From: Candidatus Minimicrobia sp. QA0096
Lineage (GTDB): Bacteria > Patescibacteriota > Saccharimonadia > Saccharimonadales > Saccharimonadaceae
Reading direction: 5' to 3'
DNA length: 32,000 nt
NCBI RefSeq assembly: GCF_963967315.1
Contig: NZ_OZ017288.1
Span: 30,001 to 62,000 of the forward strand
Translations under genes and position numbers: made by a program
Part shown: in pieces, positions 2,084-22,069 of the stretch
Numbering within the stretch: position 1 is the stretch's first letter
Layout of the letters: each line of letters starts with the position of its first letter
Notes under the pieces: model-generated
Databases searched by the model: none
What the model was told of the DNA's origin: nothing
The model's input: the letters and a program-made list of their open reading frames with translations, nothing else

Positions 2084-2155
2084 TAGTTTATTGAATAGAG
2101 TGCTGGAGTTTATCGCTATTGATTTATTGAGGATTATTTACTATACTGACGCTAA

Positions 2156-2208
2156 GAACCACCGGAGCTAAATCGCCTTACTTGAGCGGTTCGCCGGTGT
2201 TCTTTTTA
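2156..2208 (+). terminator. Candidate intrinsic terminator after the helicase gene
   Basis: Long imperfect hairpin GAAC(C)ACCGG ... CCGGTGTTC followed by TTTTTATT, about 70 nt after the helicase stop. Confidence 0.45.
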
Positions 2209-2327
2209 TTGTTAAAAGCGTATACTAGTTTGCCTTTCAACTGTAGGCTGGTCTAAAATAACTTTAAGTGCTAATCCATTGCTCAAAACTATTAAATAGC
2301 GTAGACTTACATCAACCCAACACTAGA

Positions 2328-6407: not shown

Positions 6408-6409
6408 AT

Positions 6410-7447
6410 ATGGGAATAGCTTTACAAACAATGACCAATGAATTGACGCACGTGTTTTTACTGAGCGTCGGCGCGTTTTTACTAGCGATGTTTTTAACGC
6501 CAATTTATACGTTTTTCGCTTATCGATATCGCTTCTGGAAGCGCCAAAGGTCGGAAAGCACTGACGGGAAAAAGCTAAAGATTTTTGCCAAATTCCAAGC
6601 GGCAAAATTGCGTCGAAACATCCCGACGATGGCTGGAGTGATTGGCGTAATTTCAATCTTTGTGGTGACGATTTTCTTTAATTTAGACCGAGCGCAGACC
6701 TGGCTTCCTTTGGCGGCGTTGGTTGGTGGCGGAATTGTTGGGCTAATTGACGATATCATCAATCTACGCGGTTTGGGCGGCGGCGCGGCTGGGCTTCGTA
6801 GTCCAGTGAAGTTTGCGCTGATTACGTTGATTGGCGTGGTGCTTGGTTGGTTTTTCTTTGCCAAACTGGGCGTGACGAGTTTTCACGTGCCGTTTGTGGG
6901 CGAGGTGAATATTGGTTGGTTGATAGTTCCTTTGTTCGCATTTGCGGTGGTGGCTACCGGCAACGCTGTTAATATTTCTGACGGGATGGATGGACTGGCG
7001 GGTGGGCTGCTTGGTATTAGCTTTGGAGCATTTGGTGTGATTGCCTTATTGCAACAACATGTTATATTGGCGGGATTCTGCTTTACGGTTGTTGGTGTGC
7101 TTTTGAGCTATTTGTGGTTCAATATTTATCCAGCTCGATTCTTCATGGGCGATGTTGGGAGTTTCGCTTATGGCGCGTGTTTGGGCGTTGTGGCAATGCT
7201 GACCGACTCTTTGCTCCTACTTCCTGTGATTGGCTTACTATTTGTAATTGAGGCGGGATCAAGCTTGACTCAAATCGTCAGTAAGAAGCTGTTTAAGAGA
7301 AAGATTTTCTTATCCGCGCCGATTCATCATCACTTGGAGGCGATTGGTTGGCCAGAAACTAAAGTGACGATGCGCTTCTGGGTCATTGGCTGCGTGATGG
7401 CATTTATTGGCGTGATGCTGGCGCTCGCTGGAGGTCATATTGCGTAA
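6410..7447 (+). CDS. mraY: Phospho-N-acetylmuramoyl-pentapeptide transferase MraY
   Basis: Polytopic membrane protein with NAVNISDGMDGLAGG and the C-terminal HHHLE motif, in dcw context. Confidence 0.95.
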   Translation: MGIALQTMTNELTHVFLLSVGAFLLAMFLTPIYTFFAYRYRFWKRQRSESTDGKKLKIFAKFQAAKLRRNIPTMAGVIGVISIFVVTIFFNLDRAQTWLPLAALVGGGIVGLIDDIINLRGLGGGAAGLRSPVKFALITLIGVVLGWFFFAKLGVTSFHVPFVGEVNIGWLIVPLFAFAVVATGNAVNISDGMDGLAGGLLGISFGAFGVIALLQQHVILAGFCFTVVGVLLSYLWFNIYPARFFMGDVGSFAYGACLGVVAMLTDSLLLLPVIGLLFVIEAGSSLTQIVSKKLFKRKIFLSAPIHHHLEAIGWPETKVTMRFWVIGCVMAFIGVMLALAGGHIA

Positions 7448-8732
7448 TTCGGTCGCCAAAAATCGTCAATCTATCGCTCAGCCGGTTCGAAGTCATCGAC
7501 CGATGTATCAGATTGTGCTTTATATGGGACTTTTGCTGCTACTTGGGCTGATTGTTATGTATGCGCTGGGGCCGCAACGCGCTAATGTGATGAATTATGC
7601 TTACGGCACGAATTATAGCGATACGTATTTCTTTGGTAAGCAGCTGACGAGTGTGTTTATTGCTGTCGTGGCTTTTTCTGCGTTTTATTTTACGCCGTAC
7701 AAATGGTTTATTGGCGAGAGATCAAAATACATTCTTTACGCTGGATTTGCGCTATGTATTTTACTATTTCTCTCGGGCGCGGTACTTCATTTGTCGTTTG
7801 CGCAAGAAACTAACGGTGCGTATCGATGGTTTCAATTGGGCGTATTAGGAAGTTTCCAGCCGTCAGAATTGCTCAAATATGGTGTGCTATTGTTTTTGGC
7901 GGGATTTTTAGGGCGTCGGTCGCAACAGGGAAAATTAAACGACATCCAAGAAACTATTATTCCGCTGGGCATTATTTCCGGCTTGTCGCTGCTGATGATT
8001 GTGTTTTTGCAAAAAGACTTGGGAACAGGAATTTCGTTGATAGCGATTATCTTATCAATGATTTTAGTGGCTGGAATTGATTGGAAGATTTTCAAGAAGA
8101 TTCTGGCAATCGTTGCACTTTGTGGTTTGGTGATGATTTTTACATCGCCGCACCGAATTGAGCGCGTGATGACTTTCGTGCAAGGCGATAACCACAAAGG
8201 GACGAGCAGTCAGGAGAACAAGAATTATCACATTCAGCAGGCCAGGATTGCGATTGGTTCTGGCGGGCTTCTGGGGCTTGGAATTGGTAAAAGCGTTCAG
8301 GCGACAGGATATCTTCCAGAAGCGACTAACGACTCAATTTTTGCCGTCATGGGAGAAACGTTTGGTTTTGTTGGCTTAATGGCTATATTGGCGCTATTTA
8401 CAGCATTATTATTGTCAATTTTGCACGTAGCCGCGAGACTTCCAAACGTGACGTTGCGGTTAATTGTGGCGGGAATTTTTGGCTGGATTGCTTCTCACGT
8501 GATACTGAATATCGCCGCAATGACAGGGCTGGCGCCGCTTACTGGAATTCCATTGCCGTTATTAAGTTATGGTGGCACAAGCATGTTGTTTATCGCGGCA
8601 GCGCTGGGTTTAGTTTTCCAAATTTCCAAATATACGTCACATAAAGCATTAGAGGAGGGTGAAAGTGGCCAAGATCTTAGCGGTCGGCGGCGGCTCAGGC
8701 GGACACGTTACGCCAGTGGTAGCCGTATTTAG
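7440..8732 (+). CDS. ftsW: SEDS-family peptidoglycan glycosyltransferase FtsW
   Basis: About 10 TM helices and the QPSELLKYGVLLFLAGFL motif (PSE-x-x-K), in the slot between mraY and murG. TTG 7440 overlaps the mraY stop, and ATG 7503 is an alternative start. Confidence 0.9.
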   Translation: MRNSVAKNRQSIAQPVRSHRPMYQIVLYMGLLLLLGLIVMYALGPQRANVMNYAYGTNYSDTYFFGKQLTSVFIAVVAFSAFYFTPYKWFIGERSKYILYAGFALCILLFLSGAVLHLSFAQETNGAYRWFQLGVLGSFQPSELLKYGVLLFLAGFLGRRSQQGKLNDIQETIIPLGIISGLSLLMIVFLQKDLGTGISLIAIILSMILVAGIDWKIFKKILAIVALCGLVMIFTSPHRIERVMTFVQGDNHKGTSSQENKNYHIQQARIAIGSGGLLGLGIGKSVQATGYLPEATNDSIFAVMGETFGFVGLMAILALFTALLLSILHVAARLPNVTLRLIVAGIFGWIASHVILNIAAMTGLAPLTGIPLPLLSYGGTSMLFIAAALGLVFQISKYTSHKALEEGESGQDLSGRRRLRRTRYASGSRI

Positions 8733-9828
8733 AGAATTACAGAAAACTGGTGATCACGAGCTTCGTTTTTGGTGCGATAAAAAATTTGGCGCCAGCGCAC
8801 GCGGGATTTTTGCTAAGTTCGACGAGAATATTCCGGTCGATTTGATTATTGCTGGAAAATTACGCCGATATCACGGAAAAAGTATCTCATTTCATCTACA
8901 TCCGTCGATTTTATTTCCAAATTTGCGCGACGGTTTTAAGGTGGTGGTTGGATTTTTCCAGAGTTTATTTAAGCTTATGAAGTGGCGTCCAGATGTTATT
9001 TTCATCAAGGGCGGATATGTTTGTTTGCCAGTTGGCTATGCGGCTCGGCTATTAAGAATTCCGTTGGTTTTGCATGATTCTGACGCGCATCCAGGTTTGA
9101 CGAATCGCTTGTTGAGTCCCTTCGCGAAAGCTATCGGCACGGGCGCGCCGCTTGAATATTACAATTATCCACCGGAAAAAGCTTCATATGTTGGCATTCC
9201 AGTTGCGCCAGAATTCCATCCATATTCTGAGGCTGAGAGGAAAGAACTGAAGGAAAAATTAGGCTTTAACGTCAATAAACCGCTAGTTGTTATTACTGGC
9301 GGTGGACTCGGAGCCGGGCGAATTAATTCCGCGATTGTAGCAATTAGGGAAAACCTGCTTTCTGAGGCTTCGGTATTTTTGATATCAGGAAATCAGCAAT
9401 ATGAAGAAATTCTCAAGCAAACCGACGAGCGGGAGGGCTGGCGATTGCAGGCGTTTGTTCACAACGGAATGGCGGAAGTTTTGGCGGCGGCGGATATAGT
9501 CGTGACCAGGGCAGGGGCAACCACTCTTTTGGAATTGGCGGCGCTACATAAACCGACAATCATCATCCCTAACGGCCATTTGACAGGCGGGCATCAATTG
9601 AAGAATGCTAAGGTTTATCAAGATGCGTTGGCGGCGTTGATCGTCTCCGAAGACGAGTTGGATAAGGACAACCAAATCTTGGCACGAAAAATAATTGGCG
9701 TATTAAAATCTCAGAAAATTCTTAAAGGTCTGGGTGATAACTTCGGTAAATTTGCCAAGCCAAACGCGGCTAAAGATATGGCGAAGATTATTCTTACTAC
9801 AGTGCGAAGGCAGGGTAGGCGAAAGTGA
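8659..9828 (+). CDS. murG: UDP-N-acetylglucosamine--N-acetylmuramyl-(pentapeptide) pyrophosphoryl-undecaprenol GlcNAc transferase MurG
   Basis: N-terminal GGGSGGHVTP glycine loop and a GT28 two-domain layout. The gene overlaps the 3' end of ftsW by 74 nt (68 nt if GTG 8665 is the start). Confidence 0.9.
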   Translation: MKVAKILAVGGGSGGHVTPVVAVFRELQKTGDHELRFWCDKKFGASARGIFAKFDENIPVDLIIAGKLRRYHGKSISFHLHPSILFPNLRDGFKVVVGFFQSLFKLMKWRPDVIFIKGGYVCLPVGYAARLLRIPLVLHDSDAHPGLTNRLLSPFAKAIGTGAPLEYYNYPPEKASYVGIPVAPEFHPYSEAERKELKEKLGFNVNKPLVVITGGGLGAGRINSAIVAIRENLLSEASVFLISGNQQYEEILKQTDEREGWRLQAFVHNGMAEVLAAADIVVTRAGATTLLELAALHKPTIIIPNGHLTGGHQLKNAKVYQDALAALIVSEDELDKDNQILARKIIGVLKSQKILKGLGDNFGKFAKPNAAKDMAKIILTTVRRQGRRK

Positions 9829-10739
9829 AATTCCCCTTCTCTAAGAAAAAATCGGACGAGAATCTAAGTCGTCGAGAAATCGCGGCGCGTCGTCGAACTG
9901 AGAATTACGAGAATTTGCCCGCCCAATCATATCGTCGGAACAGGACGCTTAATAGTCGCCAAACATCCTCTCCTTTGGAGACTTCTGAAAGACTCGAGAC
10001 TCATGAATTGGTGAAAAAACGTCGCCGTGTAATGCGGAAAATGTTTGCGACTGCGGTAAGTCTGCTTATTGTGATATTTCTTTTGTTTCAATTGACAATC
10101 AATATTTCAATCCAAACTCCCGACGCAAAGAGTTCCAGTAGCGCTAATAAATACGTGGGCGTTCTTAATGAATATTACAGCGCTCATCCAGCGGAGAGGT
10201 TTCGGTTCTTCCTCAATAATAATGACCTAAAGCAATTCTTTTTACAGAAAGCTCCTGAGGTAAAAAATATTCGCGTGGAGGGAGATTTTCTAGCGCGATC
10301 AGCCGTTAAGTTGACGTTTAGGCAGCCTGTGGCTCAGTGGTCTTCCGGGGATAAGATTTATTTTGTTGATGATAGCGGTGTTACTTTTGAGCAGAATTAT
10401 TTTGCCGCGCCTACGGTTGCTGTTCGTGATGAGAGTGGCCTGCCGACTAGAGGTGGTCAAGAAGTTATCAATCGTCAATTCTTGAGCTTTCTTGGTCAAG
10501 CTGTGTCTGAATTTTCGCAACATAAAATGAATGTTTCAGAGGTTATTCTGCCAGCTAATACTGTACGCCAAGTTTGGTTTAAGGTCGAGGGCAGGGAAAC
10601 TCAGATCCGTATGACGGTGGATAGGTCTGCTCAAGCTCAGGTTAAACAGGTGATAGCTACTTTGAATTATTTGGATAATAACGGCGCGAAGCCAGGGTAT
10701 ATAGACGTCAGGGTAGATCAGAGGTCGTTCTATAAGTAG
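9825..10739 (+). CDS. ftsQ: FtsQ/DivIB-like cell-division protein
   Basis: Basic N-terminus, a single TM (ATAVSLLIVIFLLFQL) and a POTRA-like extracellular part. The GTG start overlaps the murG stop (GTGA). The call rests mainly on synteny and topology. Confidence 0.65.
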   Translation: MKFPFSKKKSDENLSRREIAARRRTENYENLPAQSYRRNRTLNSRQTSSPLETSERLETHELVKKRRRVMRKMFATAVSLLIVIFLLFQLTINISIQTPDAKSSSSANKYVGVLNEYYSAHPAERFRFFLNNNDLKQFFLQKAPEVKNIRVEGDFLARSAVKLTFRQPVAQWSSGDKIYFVDDSGVTFEQNYFAAPTVAVRDESGLPTRGGQEVINRQFLSFLGQAVSEFSQHKMNVSEVILPANTVRQVWFKVEGRETQIRMTVDRSAQAQVKQVIATLNYLDNNGAKPGYIDVRVDQRSFYK

Positions 10740-11625
10740 GGCGATCAACTTCTCTTCTGGATAGAGTAAGTTCTCTTTTTGTTCTATTTCTGTATGACGT
10801 AGAGAATATATACAACAATATAAAAATATGCAAAAGTCAAATAATTACAAAATGATAAGCTAGGGGAGTAGGGCAATAAAAATATAAAAATGTCAAATAA
10901 TATAAAATACGTTGTGGAAAACTTAACGAGCTTACGGCGCGCATACTCAGAGTTTATATTGATGTAAAAATATCAATGTAGCACTCCAGTATGTGTAGTG
11001 CTGGAATTAAAAATATTTTTTTTAAGTTCGTATTTTGTTGGTGTATATTTTTATAAAAGACAGCATGTTTTATGAAGTTGTATACAATAGAGAATCCCCT
11101 AGTCAAATTACTGGAAAAAGTTCGTTTTATAAGGTGTTATCGGATATATAGAGACATATGTATATTCACCTTTGTATGACATTTATTATTACGTAAAAGG
11201 TACATTGTGCGACATTAAAACTATATCTAAAACACGACTATTCCATCGTCTTTCTTCGCGATAAATTTATCTCATTTTCACCAAATCAACCTACTTGTCG
11301 TTTATCGTTTTATAAATCGCCCTATTTGCTGGCTTAGTGTGTTTTATGTTGTATGTTGGTTTATCTGCATTGGCTCGGATTTATAATTTATGTTTGTATC
11401 ACGCAAAATTTATCAATATAAATACTCAGCCGGATTCGTCTTTATATATGCTTAAAAATGACTAATAATTAGTTCGTATTTTGTTCTATTGTTTTTTAAT
11501 TGCTAATTTTGTGAAAGAGCTTGGGTGATTCTGTGCTTAATTATTTCACTGTTCCATTCGCCCGCCTTAAATCGCAGTAGGGGCATACCCCTGCCTTATT
11601 TTGATTGTTGGTAAAATGTGCCTTA

Positions 11626-11656
11626 TCAAAAAAGGCACCTCATTTTTGAGGTGCCT
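11626..11656 (-). terminator. Intrinsic terminator of the RHH gene
   Basis: Perfect 10-bp stem AGGCACCTCA (11633-11642) / TGAGGTGCCT (11647-11656) with a 4-nt loop. Read on the minus strand it is followed by a run of six T. Confidence 0.8.
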
Positions 11657-11700
11657 ATACAACAACGACTGCAAATTACAACAATCGCCCAGCCATAATA

Positions 11701-11892
11701 CTACTTTTTAAGCGATTGCTCAAGGCGGTAGTTTATCTCACCAGTTATGCTGCGACCGTTCTCTGCGGCTAGCACAACTAAGCGTTCATACACTTCCTGC
11801 TTAATTCGTACATTATAAACTGGCGTAGATATCTCAACCTTAGACTTGATAATCTTTCCATTCTTTTTTACAATTTGATTTACTATTGGCAT
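11701..11892 (-). CDS. Ribbon-helix-helix (Arc/CopG/MetJ-type) DNA-binding protein, 63 aa
   Basis: SD GGAGG lies 5 nt before ATG 11892. The C-terminal YNVRIKQEVYERLVVLAAENGRSITGEINYRLEQSL fits the beta-strand/helix/helix RHH pattern, and the gene has its own terminator. Confidence 0.7.
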   Translation of the reverse strand: MPIVNQIVKKNGKIIKSKVEISTPVYNVRIKQEVYERLVVLAAENGRSITGEINYRLEQSLKK

Positions 11893-12129
11893 ATTCGCCT
11901 CCTTTTTTATGAGGATACCTTAGCGCCAAGCGAGGCGTTAAGTTTATATTTTTATTATCTCTTTGGGTTTGCGATTCATTATAATATGGCGTATCCTCTA
12001 ATTGTTAATGTGCCTCGCCTGAGTGCTTCTATTATAGCAAAGTTGCACTCATAATGTAATCATTTTGCATGCATTTTATGTAAAATTTATCCTGAAAATG
12101 ATAATTTACCATATGGCGTCGCCGTACAT

Positions 12130-12161
12130 AAATAAAACCCGCCCCCATTTTCAGAGGGCGG
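12130..12161 (-). terminator. Minus-strand hairpin plus T-run between the CRISPR array and the RHH gene
   Basis: CCGCCC (12139-12144) / GGGCGG (12156-12161). Read on the minus strand the stem is followed by GTTTTATTTAT. Confidence 0.4.
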
Positions 12162-12287
12162 AAAGGCCACATGGATGTTTAAACCATGCGTTTGCAGTTT
12201 ATCACTATTTTTTAGATTCCGCAATATGCTTAAATATACAATAAAATAAGGCGTACCGCTTTCCGAGACCAGACCCGGGTGTCTTTG

Positions 12288-13774
12288 GTTATAGTTCCCT
12301 AACAATTTAGATATTGATATAATATTACGCCGGACGGGGGAAGAACACCAGCGTTATAGTTCCCTAACAATTTAGATATTGATATAATAAATCCGCTAAT
12401 CATGCAGTGAAAATGGATGTTATAGTTCCCTAACAATTTAGATATTGATATAATTTCACCATCAGCCTTTATATAAGCAGTGCGGTTATAGTTCCCTAAC
12501 AATTTAGATATTGATATAATTATAGAGTCATCAGTTGCTAAGGAGGCTCTGTTATAGTTCCCTAACAATTTAGATATTGATATAATGTCGCGTTCGTTAC
12601 GTTGTTGCGATAAAGGGTTATAGTTCCCTAACAATTTAGATATTGATATAATTACGCCCCTCTCTGTTAGGCTACGTGTTTAGTTATAGTTCCCTAACAA
12701 TTTAGATATTGATATAATGGTACGTTACCGCTCGTAGCGGAAAATATAGTTATAGTTCCCTAACAATTTAGATATTGATATAATTCAGAAATCTCTATAA
12801 TCATATGCCTCCTTGTTATAGTTCCCTAACAATTTAGATATTGATATAATTCAGAAATCTCTATAATCATATGCCTCCTTGTTATAGTTCCCTAACAATT
12901 TAGATATTGATATAATGTTGGTCAATCAAGATAATCGATCCACTAGGTTATAGTTCCCTAACAATTTAGATATTGATATAATCAGAATCGAATACATATT
13001 CTTTCTGAGTAAGTTATAGTTCCCTAACAATTTAGATATTGATATAATAGTCGTAAAGTCTATACTGTGCGACGAAAGGTTATAGTTCCCTAACAATTTA
13101 GATATTGATATAATTATGATAGCTAACACAAATAGCACTATGAAGTTATAGTTCCCTAACAATTTAGATATTGATATAATTATGATAGCTAACACAAATA
13201 GCACTATGAAGTTATAGTTCCCTAACAATTTAGATATTGATATAATTTGGATGTGTATCTCAAAAAGGCACGAGAGGTTATAGTTCCCTAACAATTTAGA
13301 TATTGATATAATGGTGCTATTAAGATCCCGTCACCAGGTTCGGTTATAGTTCCCTAACAATTTAGATATTGATATAATCGTCATCAAGATATTGCATATT
13401 TGAAAAGCGTTATAGTTCCCTAACAATTTAGATATTGATATAATTTACCCATCACGCCACTATCATTGATAAGGGTTATAGTTCCCTAACAATTTAGATA
13501 TTGATATAATTACGCCGCCTTTACAACAGCAAACGCCTTAGTTATAGTTCCCTAACAATTTAGATATTGATATAATCTGTGAGGCGAGGTAAACGCCGTC
13601 AGCCTGGTTATAGTTCCCTAACAATTTAGATATTGATATAATTTTTTTCGTATATAAAATAGTCATTGCTACGTTATAGTTCCCTAACAATTTAGATATT
13701 GATATAATAAAACTTACACACGCGTTCGTCTTTACTCGGTTATAGTTCCCTAACAATTTAGATATTGATATAAT
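12288..13774 (+). CRISPR. CRISPR array, 23 repeats / 22 spacers (type II-C)
   Basis: 23 identical 36-nt repeats GTTATAGTTCCCTAACAATTTAGATATTGATATAAT (first 12288-12323, last 13739-13774). Spacer 1 is 29 nt and all others are 30 nt, so the period is 66 nt. The + strand is assigned from tracrRNA complementarity and wobbles, the repeat-internal TGATATAAT box, and the downstream terminator. Confidence 0.98.
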
Positions 13775-13782
13775 ACTTCCTT

Positions 13783-13812
13783 AAATCCCCCTCTGTTACG
13801 AGGGGGATTTTT
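13783..13812 (+). terminator. Terminator after the last repeat, also between convergent cas2 and the array
   Basis: Perfect 11-bp stem AAATCCCCCTC (13783-13793) / GAGGGGGATTT (13800-13810) with loop TGTTAC. The T-run is on the + strand only. Confidence 0.7.
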
Positions 13813-13814
13813 GG

Positions 13815-14138
13815 TTAGAAAAATGCTAATTGCCCAGCTGGAACGGACTTTTCTTGGGTGGTTTTTTCGCCAACAATAACGTGCATGTGTGTAAATTGAT
13901 GCTCTGTTAAATAAAGCAATCGCACCGAGCCGCTGTCCGGGGCGTGCCTCTTAATTCGCATCATATGTTTTTCTGCAACGTCACGATTTGGACATAGCCG
14001 TGTATATATGCTGTATTGAAGCATGTCAAAGCCATCATCCAATAAGAATTTACGGAACTGTGCGGTGGCCTTGCGCTCTGTTTTGGTATTGGTCGGCAAA
14101 TCAAAGAATACTGCGACCCTCATAAGTTTGTATGACAT
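13815..14138 (-). CDS. cas2: CRISPR-associated endoribonuclease Cas2
   Basis: 107 aa. The N-terminal MRVAVFFDLPT...QYSIYTRL fits the type II Cas2 ferredoxin fold pattern. It is adjacent to cas1 (5-nt gap) and to the array. Confidence 0.9.
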   Translation of the reverse strand: MSYKLMRVAVFFDLPTNTKTERKATAQFRKFLLDDGFDMLQYSIYTRLCPNRDVAEKHMMRIKRHAPDSGSVRLLYLTEHQFTHMHVIVGEKTTQEKSVPAGQLAFF

Positions 14139-14143
14139 CCCTT

Positions 14144-15037
14144 TTACTGGAGGACGATTTTTGGTAGAAGAAGCTTATCTGCCTCCTTTGTCTCTATACA
14201 TTCAATAAAGCTCTCAACTGTTCGCTCAACCGAATGTCTCACGGTAAACTTCTTACCGTTCATTATAACATAATAATTTAATATGTCAATAATAAGTTGG
14301 CGATCATGCTTAGTGAGGCTGGCATCGCGGTCGCCGACATGAAGTGGCGCAACTTTTTCTAAGATATATAAATCGACAGCGGCACGGTACGGCTCAATTA
14401 GATCGTCAGCCAGGTTAAAGCTGTTAAGCTCATTGTGGTGAAATAGCCCCTGTGAGGCAACTAGTCCGCGAGCAGCAATATGTCTGGCAATGTGACTTCG
14501 CACCATAGCGTAGCCATAGTTTAATGCGGCATTGTGCCAGATTGGCTTGCGGCGTGTGGCGTCGCCCAGTATTTGGTCGAAATAGATTCTGGCGGCAATT
14601 GACTCGCGATTGCTGGTGTCGCCCGATTTAACATCGTTAGCTAAAGACCGCAAAGTGGAATCGTCTAGCCCGCGAGATCGCAAGACGTCTGCTTGATTTG
14701 TGATTTTACTGATAATAATTTGTTGCCATAGTTGCTTTTTTAATGGTTGGCTCATGGACAATTGTTGACGCGAAACTTTGGCTTGGCGCGAATGTTGTGA
14801 ATATGGTAGAAGTACGCTGGCAGGTAAATGCTTTTCGTCGCATATTACAGTGGTTGTTCCTTTTGTAGCTAATGCTGTCAGCAAATTTGTCGTGATAGTT
14901 GATCCGTAATTGTCTAAAATTAAGGCGTCAATATCTTCAATTGGAAGAGTCGATTCCATTTCCTGTGCAATTACTAGTTGATTATCACGCACGCTAAGCC
15001 GCGCAGGATTTTCGATAGCTACGACGCGCCAAGCCAT
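14144..15037 (-). CDS. cas1: CRISPR-associated integrase Cas1 (type II)
   Basis: 297 aa starting MAWRVVAIENPARLSVRDNQLVI, with the catalytic region ALNYGYAMVRSHIA...FHHNELNSFNLADDLIEPYR. The ATG directly abuts the cas9 stop. Confidence 0.92.
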   Translation of the reverse strand: MAWRVVAIENPARLSVRDNQLVIAQEMESTLPIEDIDALILDNYGSTITTNLLTALATKGTTTVICDEKHLPASVLLPYSQHSRQAKVSRQQLSMSQPLKKQLWQQIIISKITNQADVLRSRGLDDSTLRSLANDVKSGDTSNRESIAARIYFDQILGDATRRKPIWHNAALNYGYAMVRSHIARHIAARGLVASQGLFHHNELNSFNLADDLIEPYRAAVDLYILEKVAPLHVGDRDASLTKHDRQLIIDILNYYVIMNGKKFTVRHSVERTVESFIECIETKEADKLLLPKIVLQ

Positions 15038-18000
15038 TTATAGCCACCTGTAGTTATCGCCTAGTATAGAGATGTCGTAGCGCTCGATGAGATTTGCGGA
15101 GCGTGGTGAGATGCGACGGCGGTTTGTTCCTTCTTTGCTTGGAGAACTGGCGTTTATGACGGTTATTCGCCCACTATCAATGTCATAGGCTGTGTAGTAA
15201 CCCTCCTCGATATTATTACCGAAATAACACCTTACATAATCATTCGGATATAACGAGCAAACTTTAGTGAATGTCTCATCTACATCAGTAAATCCTTTTG
15301 GCACTGGCAGTATTTTTGTTGGTGCGGGCTTATTTTTTCCAACTTGGTGGGCGTAAACTGGCGCGAAGAAGTGTTCAATCTTGCCTTTCTTGTTCGGCTT
15401 TTGATATACATCAAGTCGCACCATAGATCCGTTGTTAACAAATGCCTTATCGTCGTTGATATAAAATCCGCTTGGTTGTGTCGAATATACTTTGATAGTT
15501 GAGACTGGAGACAGCTTATTGCCGTTTTTATCAGTCTTCTTGTCGTTTTTATATATGGGTTCAGCGAACGCTTTTTCGGGATTGTCATCGCAAGCGTCCA
15601 GTCTTTCAAGTAATTTTTTATATAGCCATTTATCTGATTCTTTAAGCGTGGAATTTTCGACATCCTTGCGTTTAACTTTTTTGAGCGGCACTCTTACGGT
15701 TCGTTGATCGCCGTCTTTAACTTTTGGTGAGCGAATTGTTTCTTTATGTGCCGAACCAGTCGCTTTACGGCGTGGCATACGTGAGACAAAAATTGGTTTT
15801 ACGCTCAATCGAAACTCTTCGTCGTAGTTATCAAGACCTCGCAACTCATTTTGCAGAGTCTTGATATCGACATTAAGGGTTCGCTTCATAACTTCTTTGC
15901 CGAAGTCATCCCACGGCTGAGGAAAATGTTTCGAAGATAGCACAAGCATTGCATTTTTACGACGCTGAGCTTTATTAAACTCATCTTCATCGATGATTTC
16001 TCCAGTGAGTTTATCAGTTTTTTCTTCCATCGTTTTGGCAGCTGCAAGCAGTTCTTTGATTTCGTGGCGCTTGGCGTGCAAGTTAGCTTGCATTATAATC
16101 TTTTGGTCAATTGCCGCTACAACTGCTGCATCTTTGGCGTGATGTAGAACGTCCTCGCTACGATCTTTAGCCAGACCCCAACGCTTGCGTAGATATGCTG
16201 TCGTTGTTCCGCTTGGTGCAATTACGCGCTGTTTTTCTTCACCTTCTGCAAAGTCAACATTTTGGCGTAAATAATTCTGAATAAATCGTGTGATGTATCT
16301 AGTATCGTTTAAGGCACGCACATTCCAGCTGTCGTTCTTATAATCCTGCAGAAGCAGATTTTGCTTCTTCTTCATTGCGTAGCCGTTATATTTGTAATTG
16401 ATGGCATTTGTGGCCTTATCGTCCGTTTTAATATCGCGTGTCTTATATATCGACTCTACTCTGGCGACAAACTCCTTCCAGCGGTTTTCATCTGCGCCAA
16501 AATATTCAAATGGAGTTTTATTGCTCTTTTTCTGGTTTTCTTCTGTTAGTACTAGCACTTTATTAGTTATCCCGTCATTATTAGAGCGTGAAAATGGTAC
16601 GATGTGGTCTATCTGATATGCATTGTCGTCTTGTAACATCGTGTCGAAATCGATTGGTTTTCCAGAATATGGACAAATACCGTTTTGCTCACGATAGAGC
16701 TTAACCTTAATAATTTGCTGACCGTTAAAATCGGCGTTTTTATTCAGTGGTACGCTAAGTTCTTTTAGGTGGCTGAGAAGTTGCTTGCCGCCCTTGGTTT
16801 TTGGCGATGCTTCATATCCATCAGCGATTATAGATTTAATGTCTTCGTTATATCCTTGATTCTCTTCATTTTCTTTTTTAATTGCGTTGCGTTCTTTGAA
16901 ATTTTTTGCCAAGTCACGAGCAGTTTCAACTTTAATAAAGTAAGGTTTACCGTATTTGCGTTCAATGGCGCGAACGACCTTCAGTGTTTGCGATATGGCA
17001 CGTTTTACGACGGGATTGGTGATTTGCTCTAGACTAGCTGATTGTTTCTTGAAGTCATAACCAGCGGCCTCACAGGCTTTATCGTAAGTCATACCATTAA
17101 GAATATGCGGTGTGATTTTTTGCAAAGCTTTTATCGACAGATGGCAGAATGACCCAAAATTAGTAGCTTTAATTTTGATAATTGCGTTTCTGGCGTCATC
17201 AGAAATTGGCAATGCATTTAATTCGGCTTTAATTCCTTCGTCAGATTTTTGTGTAGTGAGAATATAAGCGATTTGATTGATCGTTGATTCGTTGTCAATT
17301 TTCGCCCAATCTTCTGGTAGATTTTTTAGTGCTGTTTTAATATCATAGTAGGCTTTTAAACCGCCGAATGTATTTCCCTCTCCGAATTCATCGCCGTCCT
17401 TTTTCTTTCCGTGCGTATATTTTGGAACGTAATCTTCACTAATTCCCGCAATGCTACGCACTTTTTTATACGTTAGGCTTTTTTGGTTTCTGGCGGCTTC
17501 GATAACTTTATTTATCTGCTCTGAAGATAATCTTATCTCTAGATTTTCTCGCTTTGCCTGGCGCTTGCTGGCGTCGCGAGGTATGAATACCAGATGTGAT
17601 AAGTCGCTTGCCAAGCGAAAAATTTCGAAGCTGTAGCTAGCTCTTGGTGCTCGTTTTTCATTTTCTTCAAAAGTACAGTTCCCGACCATTTTTTTAATCA
17701 GCTCTTCAGTCATAAATGGGCGCTGGTACATAATTGCTGATATATTTACGACATTTTTGTCATCGTCCAAGCCGTAAAGCATTTCATTGATCGCTGTATC
17801 GGAAACGTTTTTTAAGGCATATCTTTTCTGGACCTCAATGATCTTTTCTAATTCGTGCAAAAAATCACCACGAGAAAAACTATTAGTGTAATCGTCACGC
17901 TTATTGCGTTTATGTGACGCAAAGTTTTCATCGCGACTCAGAGCTTCGCCGACGGTTTTATATTCATTCTCGGCGAGGAACTTTTCATTAGTTTTCAAGG

Positions 18001-18475
18001 CTTTTGATATGCGACCGCCTTCTTTTTCCGACTCTTCCTCAACTTTACGATTCGACTTAAATCCACGTCGTTTGGCGATTTGGTACATGACCTTGAGCAG
18101 CTCTTCTGGGGATAATTCCTCGGTGAGCGCTTTTGAACGCAGAGCATATACGTCTAATTTGTTAAATTCGGATTTGTCACTTAAGACTTCTTCGATTCGA
18201 TCTCTGGTGAGAATATTTTGGTCAATAAAGAATTGCTTCAAATTATTCAAACGTTGACGTCGCCGTTTTAAGCGACGGCGAGCTGACCGTGCGTCGCGGC
18301 GAGGTTTGGCAAGCGAATCTCCGTTTTGTGGATCTTCTGGTTTTTCAAAAATGCGCACCCCTAAATCATGGATGCGCTCTTTATCTAAGTCTAATACTGC
18401 CCAGCCGATTGAAGATGTCCCAATGTCTAGACCTAGTGAATATTTTTTTGGTGAATATGAATATTTTTGAGTCAT
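15038..18475 (-). CDS. cas9: CRISPR-associated endonuclease Cas9 (1145 aa, type II-C by locus content)
   Basis: RuvC-I YSLGLDIGTSSIGWAVL, Arg-rich bridge helix PRRDARSARRRLKRRRQRL, RuvC-II IKVETARDL, HNH YQIDHIVPFSRSNNDGITNKVLV and RuvC-III HHAKDAAVVAA. SD AAGGA precedes the ATG. There is no csn2 or cas4 in the locus. Confidence 0.97.
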   Translation of the reverse strand: MTQKYSYSPKKYSLGLDIGTSSIGWAVLDLDKERIHDLGVRIFEKPEDPQNGDSLAKPRRDARSARRRLKRRRQRLNNLKQFFIDQNILTRDRIEEVLSDKSEFNKLDVYALRSKALTEELSPEELLKVMYQIAKRRGFKSNRKVEEESEKEGGRISKALKTNEKFLAENEYKTVGEALSRDENFASHKRNKRDDYTNSFSRGDFLHELEKIIEVQKRYALKNVSDTAINEMLYGLDDDKNVVNISAIMYQRPFMTEELIKKMVGNCTFEENEKRAPRASYSFEIFRLASDLSHLVFIPRDASKRQAKRENLEIRLSSEQINKVIEAARNQKSLTYKKVRSIAGISEDYVPKYTHGKKKDGDEFGEGNTFGGLKAYYDIKTALKNLPEDWAKIDNESTINQIAYILTTQKSDEGIKAELNALPISDDARNAIIKIKATNFGSFCHLSIKALQKITPHILNGMTYDKACEAAGYDFKKQSASLEQITNPVVKRAISQTLKVVRAIERKYGKPYFIKVETARDLAKNFKERNAIKKENEENQGYNEDIKSIIADGYEASPKTKGGKQLLSHLKELSVPLNKNADFNGQQIIKVKLYREQNGICPYSGKPIDFDTMLQDDNAYQIDHIVPFSRSNNDGITNKVLVLTEENQKKSNKTPFEYFGADENRWKEFVARVESIYKTRDIKTDDKATNAINYKYNGYAMKKKQNLLLQDYKNDSWNVRALNDTRYITRFIQNYLRQNVDFAEGEEKQRVIAPSGTTTAYLRKRWGLAKDRSEDVLHHAKDAAVVAAIDQKIIMQANLHAKRHEIKELLAAAKTMEEKTDKLTGEIIDEDEFNKAQRRKNAMLVLSSKHFPQPWDDFGKEVMKRTLNVDIKTLQNELRGLDNYDEEFRLSVKPIFVSRMPRRKATGSAHKETIRSPKVKDGDQRTVRVPLKKVKRKDVENSTLKESDKWLYKKLLERLDACDDNPEKAFAEPIYKNDKKTDKNGNKLSPVSTIKVYSTQPSGFYINDDKAFVNNGSMVRLDVYQKPNKKGKIEHFFAPVYAHQVGKNKPAPTKILPVPKGFTDVDETFTKVCSLYPNDYVRCYFGNNIEEGYYTAYDIDSGRITVINASSPSKEGTNRRRISPRSANLIERYDISILGDNYRWL

Positions 18476-18554
18476 GATGGTCCTTTTTGTGAGATAATTT
18501 AATGCAATTATACAACCAAAATAGAATATTTGAAAGCGTAAATACTTTACTCAT

Positions 18555-18674
18555 AAAAAAGATAATCCGCTCAACGAGTGAACGGATTAGAGCTTTGCTT
18601 TAGTATTTCTACTAAATTATTATAGAAACCTAAAACAACTTAGATATTGATACAATCCTTACTTAAGGGACTGT
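18555..18674 (-). ncRNA. tracrRNA (predicted)
   Basis: + strand 18619-18656 resembles the full repeat in the same orientation, so the minus-strand RNA is an anti-repeat. It is followed by hairpin UUUAGUA-GAAA-UACUAAA (18599-18616), terminator stem UAAUCCG/CGGAUUA (18563-18589) and U6 (18555-18560). The candidate promoter is TTGCGC (18704-18709), 17 nt, TACACT (18681-18686) on the minus strand. The 5' end is approximate. Confidence 0.8.
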
Positions 18675-18801
18675 AACTACAGTGTACTCCAATCAATGCT
18701 ATCGCGCAAGTATTATTTTGGTCATATTCTGCCAACTGAGCGGCACTAGCACGGTTACCACCGCCGTCGACATTCTGGGATTCTTGTGCTATATTACGAG
18801 C

Positions 18802-18870
18802 AGAATCCCCTAGATGGTGTAACTCAGTTGATGGGCTCGTCCCTGCTGGCTCCATGGGGGATTTTCTTGT
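18802..18870 (+). ncRNA. Candidate small RNA, unit 1 of a tandem family
   Basis: Promoter TCGACA (18767-18772), 17 nt, TGc-TATATT (18787-18795). The predicted 5' end AGAAUCCCC pairs with GGGGAUUUU (18857-18865), which is followed by CUUGUUG. The result is a panhandle RNA of about 68 nt with no credible ORF. Confidence 0.45.
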
Positions 18871-18927
18871 TGTGGTGTGATCATTCTCATCATTGGTATT
18901 CTGGACTTCTTGTGCTATATTGGCACC

Positions 18928-19060
18928 ATCAGGGCTTCGACCGGCGGAAACTGGCGCGCCGCCGACATAGCTATCGCTATTGGTGGATGATGGAACAACA
19001 TTTGCGCCCCCATCCGAAGCTCTCGAAATCTCTTCTCGTTGTTGGGAGAGATTTTTTATT
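18928..19060 (+). ncRNA. Candidate small RNA, unit 2
   Basis: Promoter TTGGTA (18893-18898), 17 nt, TGc-TATATT (18913-18921). Terminator AATCTCTTC (19027-19035) / GGAGAGATT (19045-19053) is followed by a T-run extending to 19057. Confidence 0.4.
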
Positions 19061-19109
19061 TCTCCTTCTTATCATTGACATTCTGGGCTTCTTATACTAT
19101 ACTTCCATT

Positions 19110-19181
19110 AGAAAAGTCGTCCAGTCCCCGTTCGGCTTGTCCACGGGGCGCACCATTAAGGTCACCTGGGCGGCTTTTTTT
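19110..19181 (+). ncRNA. Candidate small RNA, unit 3
   Basis: Promoter TTGACA (19075-19080), 17 nt, TATACT (19098-19103). Closing stem GUCGUCCAG (19116-19124) / CUGGGCGGC (19166-19174) includes two G:U pairs and is followed by T7. The inner hairpin is CCCCG (19126-19130) / CGGGG (19144-19148). Confidence 0.45.
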
Positions 19182-19295
19182 CTTGGCTTCGCACATTACC
19201 TTCATAAAGAGTATCTCGCCCTGTTGTCTGTCTTCTAAGAAATTTACAGGCTATTAATCATTGATATCTTGAGGATTGTTTGCTATAGTGGAGTT

Positions 19296-19391
19296 ATTAA
19301 TATCCCCTCCCTTTAAGAGGTTCATCCTCTGAGGGGATGCTTCCAGAAGAATCCCCACTTAAATCCCGGTAATGGGATTCGGGGATTTTTT
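19296..19391 (+). ncRNA. Candidate small RNA, unit 4
   Basis: Promoter TTGATA (19261-19266), 17 nt, TGc-TATAGT (19281-19289). There are two nested hairpins: ATCCCCTC...GAGGGGAT, and AATCCCC..AATCCC-GGTAAT-GGGATT..GGGGATT, followed by T6 (19386-19391). Confidence 0.45.
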
Positions 19392-19403
19392 CTGTATTAT
19401 TTG

Positions 19404-19439
19404 GTTATAATGCCCCAACAATCTAAATACCGATATTCC
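19404..19439 (+). repeat. Solitary diverged CRISPR repeat (26/36 identical to the array repeat, same orientation)
   Basis: GTTATAATGCCCCAACAATCTAAATACCGATATTCC aligns without gaps to GTTATAGTTCCCTAACAATTTAGATATTGATATAAT. It lies 5.6 kb from the array, on the far side of cas9 and the tracrRNA, and has lost the 3' TATAAT box. Confidence 0.75.
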
Positions 19440-19480
19440 CTAAGAGCCACGTTTCACCTTTACTCCCGACGCTCCAGAGG

Positions 19481-19489
19481 TGATATAAT
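19481..19489 (+). promoter_or_regulatory. Extended -10 box TGATATAAT, 9 nt upstream of the speH ATG
   Basis: TGATATAAT at 19481-19489 and a second TATAAT at 19493-19498 abutting ATG 19499. There is no SD, so the transcript is predicted to be leaderless or nearly so. Confidence 0.45.
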
Positions 19490-19498
19490 TACTATAAT

Positions 19499-19843
19499 AT
19501 GCATGCCGCGGTCCAATCTATAACCATAAAAGTGAGCGAAGTTGATTCTGCTTTGCTTAATGACGCGGATGAGCTGCAGAAAATGTTAAGAAATGTTACG
19601 GAATTGGCTGGCTTACATCATCTGGAATCGGTGATGCATCAATTTTCTCCGCAAGGAATCAGCGCCGCCCTGCTTTTGTCGGAGTCGCACATCGCGATTC
19701 ATACGTGGCCAGAAAGCGGCGTGGCGTATATAGCGATGACAACTTGTAAAATGCTGGATGATGATAAATTGCAACAAATAAAAGAGTTGGTCGCACGTAT
19801 GTTGGATGCGAAAAACATAAGTATGGAAGAAATGGCATTGTAA
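19499..19843 (+). CDS. speH: S-adenosylmethionine decarboxylase proenzyme (small pyruvoyl-dependent class 1 type)
   Basis: Self-processing and active-site signature LLLSESHIAIHTWPE followed by AYIAMTTC. The size of 114 aa is typical. Confidence 0.9.
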   Translation: MHAAVQSITIKVSEVDSALLNDADELQKMLRNVTELAGLHHLESVMHQFSPQGISAALLLSESHIAIHTWPESGVAYIAMTTCKMLDDDKLQQIKELVARMLDAKNISMEEMAL

Positions 19844-19844
19844 T

Positions 19845-20531
19845 ATGAAACGAACCAAGGCGCGACTTAAAATCAACCAAATATTGACTGGAAAGAAAAC
19901 TAATTTACGAGTTGTTGGCTGTTTGCTTTTTCGCGAATGGGATAAGAAAGATAAGCGATTTTACTACTGGGAAGAGTGGGAGATTACTGGGCTGGCTGAT
20001 TATGATAGCTGGGTGGAATATGATCACAGCGATCAAACCGTTTCTCTGTATGAGCCAATTCGTTTCACTCAGACAATTGATCCAACGCAATTGAAAAAGG
20101 GTCAATCATTCACCGTTTCCGAGCAGGATGGCAAGGATCACGTTGTGGTGGTTGACGAGGTTGGAATTGGTGAAATTATGAACATCAAGGGCAAAAACAC
20201 GTATCAAGTTTTCCCGAAAGAACTGATGGCGTACGCTACTTTGAGGGATACTGGCGCGCCAAAAAACCGTCAGTTGATCACGATTGAGAAGTATAACAAT
20301 CGCGAATATGATGCCTATCGCAAGGTTCAATTGAGCGACAAAGAACAGAAGGAAATGTTCGGCAGGACCATTAAGCCGATTGACTGGACGACGATTATAG
20401 TCATTACCATATTTATCGCCATTATTTTGTTTGCGTTCATCTTTGACAACAATTCCGACAGTAGCAAAGGCGGAGGTCACGGCGGATCGCGCAGTGTTTA
20501 CGGCGGCAGTAGCGGCGGGCTTGGCAAATAA
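19845..20531 (+). CDS. DUF4178-like protein with C-terminal TM helix and Gly/Ser-rich tail
   Basis: The W-x-E-W/Y core (FYYWEEWEITGLADYDSWVEYDH) resembles DUF4178 as I remember it. It has a C-terminal TM (IDWTTIIVITIFIAIILFAFIF) and tail GGGHGGSRSVYGGSSGGLGK. The ATG is 2 nt after the speH stop. The family assignment is tentative. Confidence 0.6.
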   Translation: MKRTKARLKINQILTGKKTNLRVVGCLLFREWDKKDKRFYYWEEWEITGLADYDSWVEYDHSDQTVSLYEPIRFTQTIDPTQLKKGQSFTVSEQDGKDHVVVVDEVGIGEIMNIKGKNTYQVFPKELMAYATLRDTGAPKNRQLITIEKYNNREYDAYRKVQLSDKEQKEMFGRTIKPIDWTTIIVITIFIAIILFAFIFDNNSDSSKGGGHGGSRSVYGGSSGGLGK

Positions 20532-20542
20532 AAGGAGTTATA

Positions 20543-22069
20543 ATGTCACGATCAAGTACGAAAAAACGGGAGCAAGTTGCTTTATTTGCGGCGGCAATTT
20601 TAGTAGCAATTGGCGGAATTATTTACGAGCTGATTTTAGGCGCAGCTGCGTCATATCTGGTGGGCGATTCGATTTTGAGTTTTAGTCTGGCAACTGGCGT
20701 GACGTTGTTCGGTATGGGAATTGGCTCATTGCTGGTCAATTACATCAAGCTTCATCCAGCGACCAGCTTCGCAACGAACGAAATTATTCTGGGGCTAATT
20801 GGTGGAAATTCGGTGATGCTGATGTATTTGGGATTCGTTTTTACGCGTTCGCATTGGCTAATTTTTGCTATCATAAGTCTGGCAATTGGTATTTGTATCG
20901 GGCTGGAAATTCCGCTTTTAATGAAGATGTTTCAGGAGTTCGGGCGCAAGTCTTCGGTGAAATTGTTTAGTAAGATTTTAGCGCTTGATTATTTTGGGGC
21001 ATTAATTGCGTCGCTATTATTCCCGCTCGTTATGCTTCCGTATCTTGGTTTAATGCGTAGCGCGTATCTGGTGGCGGCACTGAATATTGGCGTTGCGGTT
21101 CTGATTCTTAAGCAAATGAAGGCTTCGAAAATTATTATGACAATTAGCGTTATTGCAACAATGTTGCTTTTGGGGTTTTTCATTTTTGCGACAGAAATTG
21201 AACATGGAATTGACAAGCGAACATATAAGGATCCGGTGATGTGGCAGCAGCAGACGCCTTATCAGAAAATTGTGCTGACGAGATATAAAAATGACACCAG
21301 GCTGTTTTTGAATCGTAATTTGCAGTTCTCTAGTCTTGACGAGGCGCGTTATCACGAAACGCTATCTGCTTCTGCCTTATCTTCGGTTGCTAATCCGAAG
21401 CGCGTGCTGATTATGGGCGGCGGCGATGGTTTGCTGGCTCGGGACGTTTTGAAATATCCCAGCGTTGAGCATATTACGTTGGTTGATATCGATGAGGTGA
21501 TGACCAATCTGGCGAAAACTAATCATCTTCTCACCGATATAAATCAGCGCTCGTTGCATGATCCGCGCGTTTCCATTGTCAATCAAGACGCTTTCCAATT
21601 CGCCTTCTCTACCTCAGATAAATATGATGTTGTGTTGATTGATTTGGTGGATCCGTCGAATGAAAAATTAGCCAAGTTGTATTCCGAGCAATTATATCGT
21701 CAAATTGGTAATATTTTAACGGAGCGTGGCGTTATGGTGACGCAAGCGACGTCTTCATTTTTCTCTCCACATGCTTTTTATATGGTGGCAAACACCGTCA
21801 AATCATCTCATCCAGAGCGATATGTGACGGCGTTTTCTGTCAATGTGCCGTCATTTGGCGAGTGGGGTTTTGTGTTGTCTGCGCCGCAAGCCGAGGTCGT
21901 GGCTAGCCAGCCATTGCCGAAAAACCTACGATATCAAAACCAGAAATTGCTCACCTTCCTGACTAAACAAAACGCCGTATCGGTGCCGTCTGGACCGACT
22001 TCTACGTTGGTTTCTCCGCGAATCACCGACGTTTACAATTCCGATATGCGTCAGTGGCGATACGAATAG
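20543..22069 (+). CDS. speE: Membrane-fused spermidine-synthase-like polyamine aminopropyltransferase
   Basis: The N-terminal ~210 aa are polytopic (7-8 TM). The C-terminal SpeE domain carries VLIMGGGDGLLARDVLKYP, ITLVDIDE and VVLIDLVDPS. SD AAGGAG precedes the ATG. Confidence 0.85.
   Translation: MSRSSTKKREQVALFAAAILVAIGGIIYELILGAAASYLVGDSILSFSLATGVTLFGMGIGSLLVNYIKLHPATSFATNEIILGLIGGNSVMLMYLGFVFTRSHWLIFAIISLAIGICIGLEIPLLMKMFQEFGRKSSVKLFSKILALDYFGALIASLLFPLVMLPYLGLMRSAYLVAALNIGVAVLILKQMKASKIIMTISVIATMLLLGFFIFATEIEHGIDKRTYKDPVMWQQQTPYQKIVLTRYKNDTRLFLNRNLQFSSLDEARYHETLSASALSSVANPKRVLIMGGGDGLLARDVLKYPSVEHITLVDIDEVMTNLAKTNHLLTDINQRSLHDPRVSIVNQDAFQFAFSTSDKYDVVLIDLVDPSNEKLAKLYSEQLYRQIGNILTERGVMVTQATSSFFSPHAFYMVANTVKSSHPERYVTAFSVNVPSFGEWGFVLSAPQAEVVASQPLPKNLRYQNQKLLTFLTKQNAVSVPSGPTSTLVSPRITDVYNSDMRQWRYE

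Follow-up and report, generated by a model that had tools for sequence, protein, structure and literature searches.

Probable phage-derived linker cassettes with the layout of small antisense RNA genes between speH and a type II-C CRISPR-cas locus of Candidatus Minimicrobia

The polyvalent proteins of phages (Iyer et al. 2017, PMC5512222) are the closest described system to the element considered here, an array of short plus-strand modules, each with a hairpin and a T-run and four with a promoter-like box, which lies between the gene speH and a type II-C CRISPR-cas locus (clustered regularly interspaced short palindromic repeats and associated genes) in Candidatus Minimicrobia sp. QA0096. We analysed this array within a 32,000-nucleotide stretch of the genome (contig NZ_OZ017288.1, positions 30,001 to 62,000), which is called the window below and whose numbering is used throughout. 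The modules are very probably cassettes of phage origin: their source gene would be a member of the polyvalent-protein genes and the cassettes its inter-domain linkers. In contrast to a polyvalent-protein gene, the window has only linkers, several alleles in tandem and a broken frame. A literature search found no description of antisense promoter-terminator units in polyvalent linkers.

Small structured phage RNAs complementary to phage mRNA include the c4 RNA of P1/P7, the CI RNA of P4 and sar of P22; RNAs of this type, made from resident DNA, can act in trans on incoming phage, and their allele specificity sets hetero-immunity. The cassettes likewise correspond to small structured predicted RNAs in phage DNA, complementary to phage mRNA; they lie, however, inside a gene for a virion or injected protein and not in an immunity region, and in the host they are arrayed as multiple alleles. 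Prophage remnants flanking CRISPR-cas loci are also phage DNA in a strain-variable hotspot, and larger remnants of this kind are present in two relatives (L010, L050), whereas the DNA retained in the window is non-random, consisting almost only of linker units and including alternative alleles that no single sampled phage combines. Rickettsia palindromic elements (RPEs) are palindromic, ~100-150 nt long and lie in frame inside open reading frames (ORFs), and Correia elements carry promoter and terminator activity; the cassettes are palindromic too, but show no shared terminal repeats or sign of transposition and occupy few sites. Finally, scaRNA, CreTA and RNA anti-CRISPRs are, like the RNAs predicted here, small RNAs beside cas genes, but the repeat- or anti-repeat-like sequence or the crRNA-like (CRISPR RNA-like) guides that define them are not in the modules.

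An earlier note on this DNA had described four plus-strand modules with promoter boxes, a constant 17-nt spacer and, in three of them, a TG extension, and a promoter scan against shuffled sequences bears this out. The sites begin at 18767 (TCGACA/TATATT, 10/12, with TG), 18893 (TTGGTA/TATATT, 9/12, with TG), 19075 (TTGACA/TATACT, 11/12, without TG) and 19261 (TTGATA/TATAGT, 10/12, with TG), all with the 17-nt spacer, and at 9-11/12 they have the form of sigma-70 promoters of small RNA (sRNA) genes. The region contains eight promoter-like sites where shuffled sequences give 3.5 ± 1.8, and five terminator-like sites where they give 1.1 ± 1.1. The hairpin and T-run assigned to each module are there as well: all cassettes have a GC-rich stem and a U-run on the same strand, and the predicted plus-strand RNAs of modules 1-4 fold as panhandles with the 3′ arm adjoining the U-run (z = -1.5, -2.9, -2.7 and -5.0, respectively). 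The similar 27-mers seen in units 1-3 differ at 4-5 positions. A 39-nt direct repeat, which bears no relation to the CRISPR repeat, is present at 18755, 18881 and 19063, the three copies being 67-100% identical to the reference one.

Evidence for the origin of the modules comes from viral contigs. A scan of IMG/VR with one mosaic protein of a relative gave 53 viral contigs, the complete ones mostly ~28-35 kb, and a scan with the DNA motif alone gave 16. Positions 18718-19227 and 19260-19393 resolve into six abutting fragments with 91-100% nucleotide identity to viral contigs (down to 88% in single comparisons), and homology to an LPD-domain ORF of phages is found at both the nucleotide and the protein level; elsewhere in the window phage homology is confined to 2074-2244. 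The viral contigs are real phages. One of them, L073, encodes a major head protein (phrog_422, 3e-35) and, a few genes downstream, an ORF of 2517 amino acids (aa) with LPD38 (1.5e-20), ART-PolyVal (2.3e-15) and LPD3 (4.7e-10) domains, all above Pfam thresholds; because of these domains and the nearby head gene, we identify it as the polyvalent protein of a tailed phage. Saccharibacteria phages of ~30 kb encode a polyvalent protein of 2100-2900 aa. Among the type II-C spacers of related hosts (arrays of L001, L007, L008 and L041), five match phages, four at 100% and one at 93%. Spacer sp26 of L001 targets the inside of a polyvalent gene (L102 3280-3309); the window's own 22 spacers have no match among the phage segments examined and no self target.

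The polyvalent gene has two junctions of the same plan: the end of an upstream domain (...LLY...), a linker, a conserved motif and the next domain. At site 2 the upstream domain is the Pfam-matched LPD3 domain and the linker comes directly after it. The linkers are 17-60 codons long and hypervariable between phage lineages, while the junction motif reads [N/S]-[I/V]-A-Q-E-x-Q-N-V-N, or T-I-A-N-N-P-Q-N-V-N. What looks like a promoter in each module is the reverse complement of the codons for N-I-A-Q-E-x-Q-N-V-N; in antisense reading, this motif gives an extended -10 promoter close to consensus (TTGACA-17-TGCTAyAxT), the linker gives a panhandle RNA, and the A-rich codons with which the linker opens give the U-run of an intrinsic terminator. 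Every phage that has the 27-nt motif carries it once at site 1, with a diverged copy at site 2. As each phage has one allele per site, the cassettes that we call C, A and B are therefore alternative alleles of site 1, and S2a and S2b are alternatives of the other site; these five occur together in no sampled phage.

The phage-derived DNA starts, on the side of the trans-activating CRISPR RNA (tracrRNA), with a 48-nt minus-strand fragment (18718..18765) of the phage ‘MQGNES...’ gene, which stands immediately upstream of the polyvalent gene in the phage (5210-6388 in L073; truncated copies are found in L010 and L050). Its identity reaches 98% and is 92-98% in most of ~20 viral loci (e.g. L093, L099), the lowest being 89.6%. 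Module 1, cassette C (18767..18875, plus strand), combines a promoter-like box at 18767-18795 with a predicted RNA at ~18802-18872, closed by the stem AGAAUCCCC/GGGGGAUUU and followed by UUUUCUU; it shares 93% identity with phages L089/L064 and 88% with L084-L086 over 18769-18881, where the phage strand encodes ...TTRKSPMEPAGTSPSTELHHLGDSARNIAQESQNV. Module 2, cassette A (18893..19066, plus strand), has its box at 18893-18921, a structured predicted RNA of 135 nt and a terminator made of a 12-bp hairpin (19025-19055) and U6. Its -35 box is degraded to TTGGTA where all other copies have TTGACA. Over 18887-19069 its identity is 95-96% with phages L073-L077 and with L055, L058, L059 and L062, overlapping loci from the motif scan.

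Module 3, cassette B (19075..19227, plus strand), has the best box (19075-19103, 11/12) and a predicted RNA of ~80 nt with the closing stem GUCGUCCAG/CUGGGCGGC and U7 to ~19186; the 40 nt that follow are the end of the upstream-domain coding sequence. Over 19066-19227 it matches phages L079, L080, L082, L091 and L122 at 91-94% identity, and its stem variants retain pairing through G-U on the plus strand. Module 4, cassette S2a (19261..19343, plus strand; box at 19261-19289, hairpin AUCCCCUC...GAGGGGAU), is the site-2 linker allele of L073-type phages, with 90-92% identity over 19260-19343 to L073, L055, L093-L095, L098 and L099; its phage strand encodes ...ETSPQRINLLRGGDVNNSTIANNPQNVN, immediately after the LPD3 domain. 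Cassette S2b (19344..19396, plus strand) is the alternative site-2 allele, of L104-type phages, and is 100% identical over 49 nt (19345-19393) to L104, L106, L110 and L114. It has no promoter box of its own and a strong terminator (a nested hairpin and U6; z = -5.0 for the fold of 19296-19394), which closes the array 100 nt before the speH start codon. The 32-nt filler between cassettes B and S2a (19228-19259) reads ...DQIACKFLRRQT... on the minus strand, had no match in the phage segments examined and is common to many host arrays.

The earlier note had named a genome-wide occurrence of the modules, unrelated to cas loci, as a finding that would speak against its reading, and one copy does lie away from the cas genes: module 5, cassette S2c (2119..2212, plus strand), has a TTGATT-17-TATACT box and a panhandle, AAGAACCACCGG/CCGGUGUUCUU, followed by U5. 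It lies between a PIF1-like helicase gene and mraZ, ~16.5 kb from the other modules, and the phage homology at 2074-2244 is a 171-nt polyvalent-gene fragment centred on its site-2 linker. Stops have destroyed the phage reading frame here, while the promoter, stem and U-run are kept. The same module stands at the same PIF1-helicase/mraZ locus in 23 metagenome contigs, with 93-96% identity in full-length alignments. All five changes among the host copies fall in the spacer and none in the hexamers (5/5; p ~0.07), and one U-A pair has changed to C-G in a compensatory way, with a U-G intermediate (1/19 pairs, 18 sequences); the covariation score is reached by 2/500 shuffles, and it reflects a single evolutionary event.

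Relatives show how the array varies. The module region is an insertion of ~760 bp: in the II-C relatives L022 and L039 speH stands ~100 nt from the tracrRNA anti-repeat and there are no modules. It is confined to the closest clade, with a module number that varies between genomes, and across 15 host loci the content and order of cassettes differ while their orientation is always the same. The window order is C-A-B-S2a-S2b; the others include C-B-S2b, D-A-S2a-S2b, D-B-S2b, A-S2b, E-A-C-B-S2b, C-D-A-E-F-D-S2b, E-F-D-A-D-S2a-S2b and C-D-S2a-S2b. S2b is the terminal, speH-side cassette in 13/15 arrays; L051 and L053 have no S2b, and L051 ends at its contig end. The same cassette array adjoins a type II-A system in L050, and because of this we regard it as part of a variable hotspot beside speH and not of a particular cas system. 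In L050 the II-A operon (13789-21251; Cas9 of 1340 aa, Csn2) has an unrelated repeat, with the cassette array on its speH side, and two relic II-C repeats (33/36 and 30/36) remain past the II-A array, which suggests that the cas operon was replaced in place. In L010 (2052-6000) and L008 (4233-6000) an island of 1.8-3.9 kb separates speH from the tracrRNA. In L010 it includes, beside the cassettes, the truncated MQGNES gene and a CAP-domain gene, both of which phage L073 has as well, and a gene that by inspection is DinD-like; L008 has additional polyvalent-gene fragments instead.

Features of an antisense transcription unit are also evident in the phages themselves. When 10.5 kb of L073 are scanned, the junction motifs, read antisense, come out as the two top-scoring promoter-like sites (11/12, TG, 17-nt spacer), and a terminator-like hairpin follows each. 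In L092 the polyvalent gene (6221-14825, 8.6 kb) has eight promoter-like sites against 16.8 ± 4.6 in shuffles, and retains a single 11/12 site, at the junction motif; the depletion suggests that stray promoters within the gene are selected against, the junction motif excepted. Among the antisense T-runs of two polyvalent genes (33 and 32), strong stems stand only at the linkers, and no T-run of the sense strand has one. In nine cassette sequences, comprising eight distinct alleles with C in both host and phage form, the closing stem takes up at least 7 and usually 8-9 of the 9 nt that precede the U-run; allele F, in addition, has CCGCUAG...CUAGCGG and then U6. The promoters of the CAP gene, a host tRNA gene and other genes of phage and host share the form TTGACA-17-TGCTAyAAT, and the motifs of site 1 and site 2 differ in the spacer, not in the hexamers. 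The layout of promoter, panhandle and terminator is non-random, being kept across at least nine sequence-unrelated alleles. As to anatomy, the earlier note's picture of independent small structured RNA units therefore stands; its association of these units with CRISPR does not.

We propose that each linker and its motif form a self-contained antisense transcription unit nested in the phage gene. Such units have very probably been captured by the host chromosome, all of them facing the same way, at the variable spot that separates speH from CRISPR-cas, with one more near mraZ. They would have arrived by recombination with infecting phages, and unequal crossing-over at the shared 39-nt motif may then have altered the number and order of units; recombination at the motif is homologous, which is why the opposite-strand frame would often be open. 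Any cassette RNA would be complementary to phage polyvalent mRNA, and the plus-strand RNAs of 60-135 nt predicted here would pair perfectly with the matching linker. Judging from these sequence features, we incline slightly to the view that the cassettes are transcribed, each as a unit inherited from the phage gene.

A number of observations weigh against this. Covariation amounts to one pair, and within-allele diversity is too low for statistics. In the phages, conservation of the motif does not exceed that of the coding block behind it, and 6/17 phage sequences have TACACT instead of TATATT. The module promoters in the window show decay (TTGGTA in module 2, TCGACA in module 1, TG lost in module 3), as neutral drift would produce. 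Recurrent peptide features (K-x-P where the linker starts, G-D-S where it ends) coincide in part with the closing stems, so some of the architecture could be due to the protein. For modules 1, 2 and 4 the opposite strand folds with similar z-scores. Finally, about half of the relatives have the opposite-strand ORF open, and gene calling placed it in 84 protein clusters.

Several of these points would also be expected if the array were decaying recombined phage DNA whose promoter box, hairpin and U-run, unused on the plus strand in phage and host alike, merely follow from the peptide motif and from linkers rich in Lys, Glu, Pro and Gly. In favour of this, larger phage pieces (CAP, MQGNES and DinD-like genes) are found at the same spot in L010 and L050, the ORF has decayed in the window along with the promoter hexamers, the motif is conserved in the phages only as its adjacent coding block is, and covariation is negligible. 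Chance, however, poorly explains a closing stem placed directly before a U-run, on the same strand, in nine unrelated linkers. Nor does decay account for the linkers being the only strong antisense terminators in genes of 7-8 kb, for an 11/12 TG site kept in a promoter-depleted gene, for nearly all of the phage DNA retained in the 32-kb window being linker units, or for module 5 keeping its RNA features after loss of the frame. We consider unused phage debris possible but unlikely as the full account of the array.

Transcribed cassettes might, further, serve the host: as a strain-variable library of phage-derived antisense sRNAs they would silence the polyvalent mRNA of phages with the matching allele, which the phages would escape by swapping linkers. 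With 91-100% identity, the RNAs would be perfectly or almost perfectly complementary to phage mRNA; a host has several alleles of one phage site where a phage has one; hypervariability in the phage gene resides in the linkers; array content varies between close hosts; and the array's hotspot next to CRISPR-cas is rich in defence genes. In the window, cassettes C and A extend only a few nucleotides past the -35 box on one side and the U-run on the other, which leaves minimal promoter-to-terminator units. Yet the phages retain the same promoter and terminator, which would be odd if the RNA harmed them; the window promoters are drifting; and neutral recombination can yield the same pattern. A role in immunity is, on this evidence, improbable.

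A different explanation is a host protein-coding gene on the cas9 strand, encoding a disordered linker-repeat protein, for example a decoy for a processor or binder of the polyvalent protein, with the plus-strand features incidental. The earlier note saw no credible ORF in the region, which does not hold on the minus strand. There, a broken frame runs through the cassettes (18640..19358, minus strand): a GTG-started 34-aa piece (19358-19254), then stops and a frameshift, then a 142-codon stretch (19081-18640). Frames of 165-267 codons are open in relatives, with the ‘promoter’ read as N-I-A-Q-E-x-Q-N-V-N, and a search with one of them gave 84 mosaic clusters of hypothetical proteins of up to 460 aa, including an intact ortholog, P0055, of 178 aa on 19 contigs. 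The note had named a conserved ORF in orthologous regions as a finding that would speak against RNA genes, and this is what we see in part, on the opposite strand only and with weak constraint (the ratio of nonsynonymous to synonymous polymorphism, pN/pS, is ~0.5).

Against such a gene, the frame is broken in the window and in about half of 11 hosts, and N-terminal frames differ between strains. The scan of the region gave no minus-strand promoter-like site upstream of the frame, and there is no obvious Shine-Dalgarno sequence. At its 3′ end the 142-codon frame crosses the tracrRNA promoter region, in sequence that is non-coding in L039, and ends inside the tracrRNA anti-repeat. Its pN/pS (0.51) is matched by that of the codon-coincident antisense frame (0.47), and neither dN/dS, the corresponding substitution-rate ratio, nor six-frame pN/pS separated the two. 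Pfam and PHROGs gave no domain on the host mosaic ORFs except a sub-threshold LPD3 on P0064. Moreover, because the cassettes are joined at a homologous in-frame motif, in-frame joins are automatic and an open frame is expected without selection. With in-frame stops, a frameshift and no upstream promoter-like site, the window copy of this frame does not qualify as a functional gene; we regard the ORF as mostly a by-product, and a protein-coding role as quite unlikely.

Still less credible are palindromic mobile mini-elements of the RPE or Correia kind that would insert between host genes and, keeping the frame, within the phage gene. The cassettes do resemble these in their size of 60-135 nt, their terminal inverted repeats and their position in frame within an ORF, and one copy is dispersed in the host chromosome. 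But their terminal stems differ between alleles, and this means that there is no common recognition sequence; module 5 has phage coding sequence on both sides, so that a gene fragment and not an element moved; and occupied sites number just two in the phage and two in the host. We saw no target-site duplications, in an analysis that included no dedicated genome-wide search for them, and the cassettes do not qualify as RPE-like elements or as miniature inverted-repeat transposable elements. Three further candidates were rejected. Programmed -1 frameshifting, from a sense A-run and hairpin, fails as the slippery heptamer is present only in alleles A and B, with the wrong spacing; integron-like cassettes have no integrase nearby; and for a retron or a diversity-generating retroelement there is no reverse transcriptase.

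The suggestion of the earlier note that the modules are regulatory or addiction RNAs acting on cas9, tracrRNA or crRNAs, in the manner of scaRNA, CreTA or repeat mimics, is largely refuted and has almost nothing to commend it beyond adjacency to tracrRNA, cas9 and a degenerate repeat at 19404: duplex energies of the module RNAs with the crRNA repeat, the tracrRNA and the cas9 and speH 5′ regions are no better than those of shuffles (z -1.8 to +1.4), Rfam gives no match at gathering or permissive thresholds, no repeat-like sequence (≥22/36) is found inside the modules or, as a recombination anchor, in the phages, the array is absent from the II-C relatives L022 and L039 and present beside a II-A system with an unrelated repeat, and module 5 is unlinked to cas. 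The cassettes thus lack the repeat/anti-repeat pairing of a CRISPR-associated small RNA; a CreTA-type module is not seen either, the 19404 repeat lying outside the modules and having lost the repeat's -10 box; and with a unit spacing of 126 and 182 nt and whole phage segments from two sites, the array is not a CRISPR array. The link of the cassettes to CRISPR is positional only.

The locus in which the array lies is ordered as CRISPR array, cas2/cas1/cas9 (minus strand), tracrRNA (minus strand), module region and speH (plus strand, start at 19499), with cas9 at 15038-18475. The host is an oral member of the Saccharibacteria (TM7). The first 400 residues of its Cas9 found 49 loci, all in Saccharibacteria except two distant ones in Bacillales (38-39% identity), and 10 of the 49 are 96-98% identical to the window Cas9; exact-sequence look-ups of the window's Cas9 and SpeH gave no record. 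The type II-C array (12287..13774, plus strand) has 23 repeats of GTTATAGTTCCCTAACAATTTAGATATTGATATAAT, 36 nt each, and 22 spacers. Each repeat terminates in TTGATATAAT, an extended -10 box on the plus strand. Type II-C arrays of the Neisseria type have their own promoter within every repeat, and by analogy the window crRNAs may be transcribed individually, toward cas2. The window contains no tRNA gene, and there is no tRNA attachment site.

The tracrRNA (18555..18656, minus strand) lies outside the cassette array; its anti-repeat (18619-18656; a degenerate repeat copy on the plus strand, 25/36 in an ungapped match to the II-C repeat) and terminator (18589-18563) are consistent with the placement given in the earlier note, and it is kept in all II-C relatives. 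The plus-strand copy of the anti-repeat (18619-18660) retains the -10-like end of the repeat (TTGATACAAT), which could drive plus-strand transcription into the cassette array. The solitary repeat at 19404..19439 (plus strand), also pointed out in the note, lies in host DNA just beyond the phage-derived block. It matches the II-C repeat at 26/36, while shuffles of the window reach at most 24/36, and at 27-28/36 in L003, L010 and L052; the match is modest but probably real. Present also in the II-A strain L050 and absent from the phage loci, this repeat is probably a relic. Between speH and a spermidine synthase gene is a 228-aa ORF (19845-20531) without a Pfam match, which by inspection has a C-terminal hydrophobic segment and a Gly/Ser-rich tail and is kept with speH in all relatives.

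If the cassettes are transcribed, the arrangement would be a previously undescribed one, in which complete antisense sRNA genes are nested in the linkers of a giant injected or virion protein gene and the same units are captured and reshuffled as cassettes in the host chromosome. This raises the question of what the hypervariable polyvalent linkers are for, and whether captured phage antisense RNAs might be a cheap form of immunity in ultra-small episymbionts with few defence systems. Were the improbable immune role true, it would amount to an RNA-based immune memory acquired by recombination, and the arms race would explain the hypervariability of the linkers. Should the cassettes be neutral debris instead, they would clearly document that Saccharibacteria and their phages have recombined again and again, and would caution that apparent sRNA families beside cas genes can be wrong-strand fragments of phage genes.

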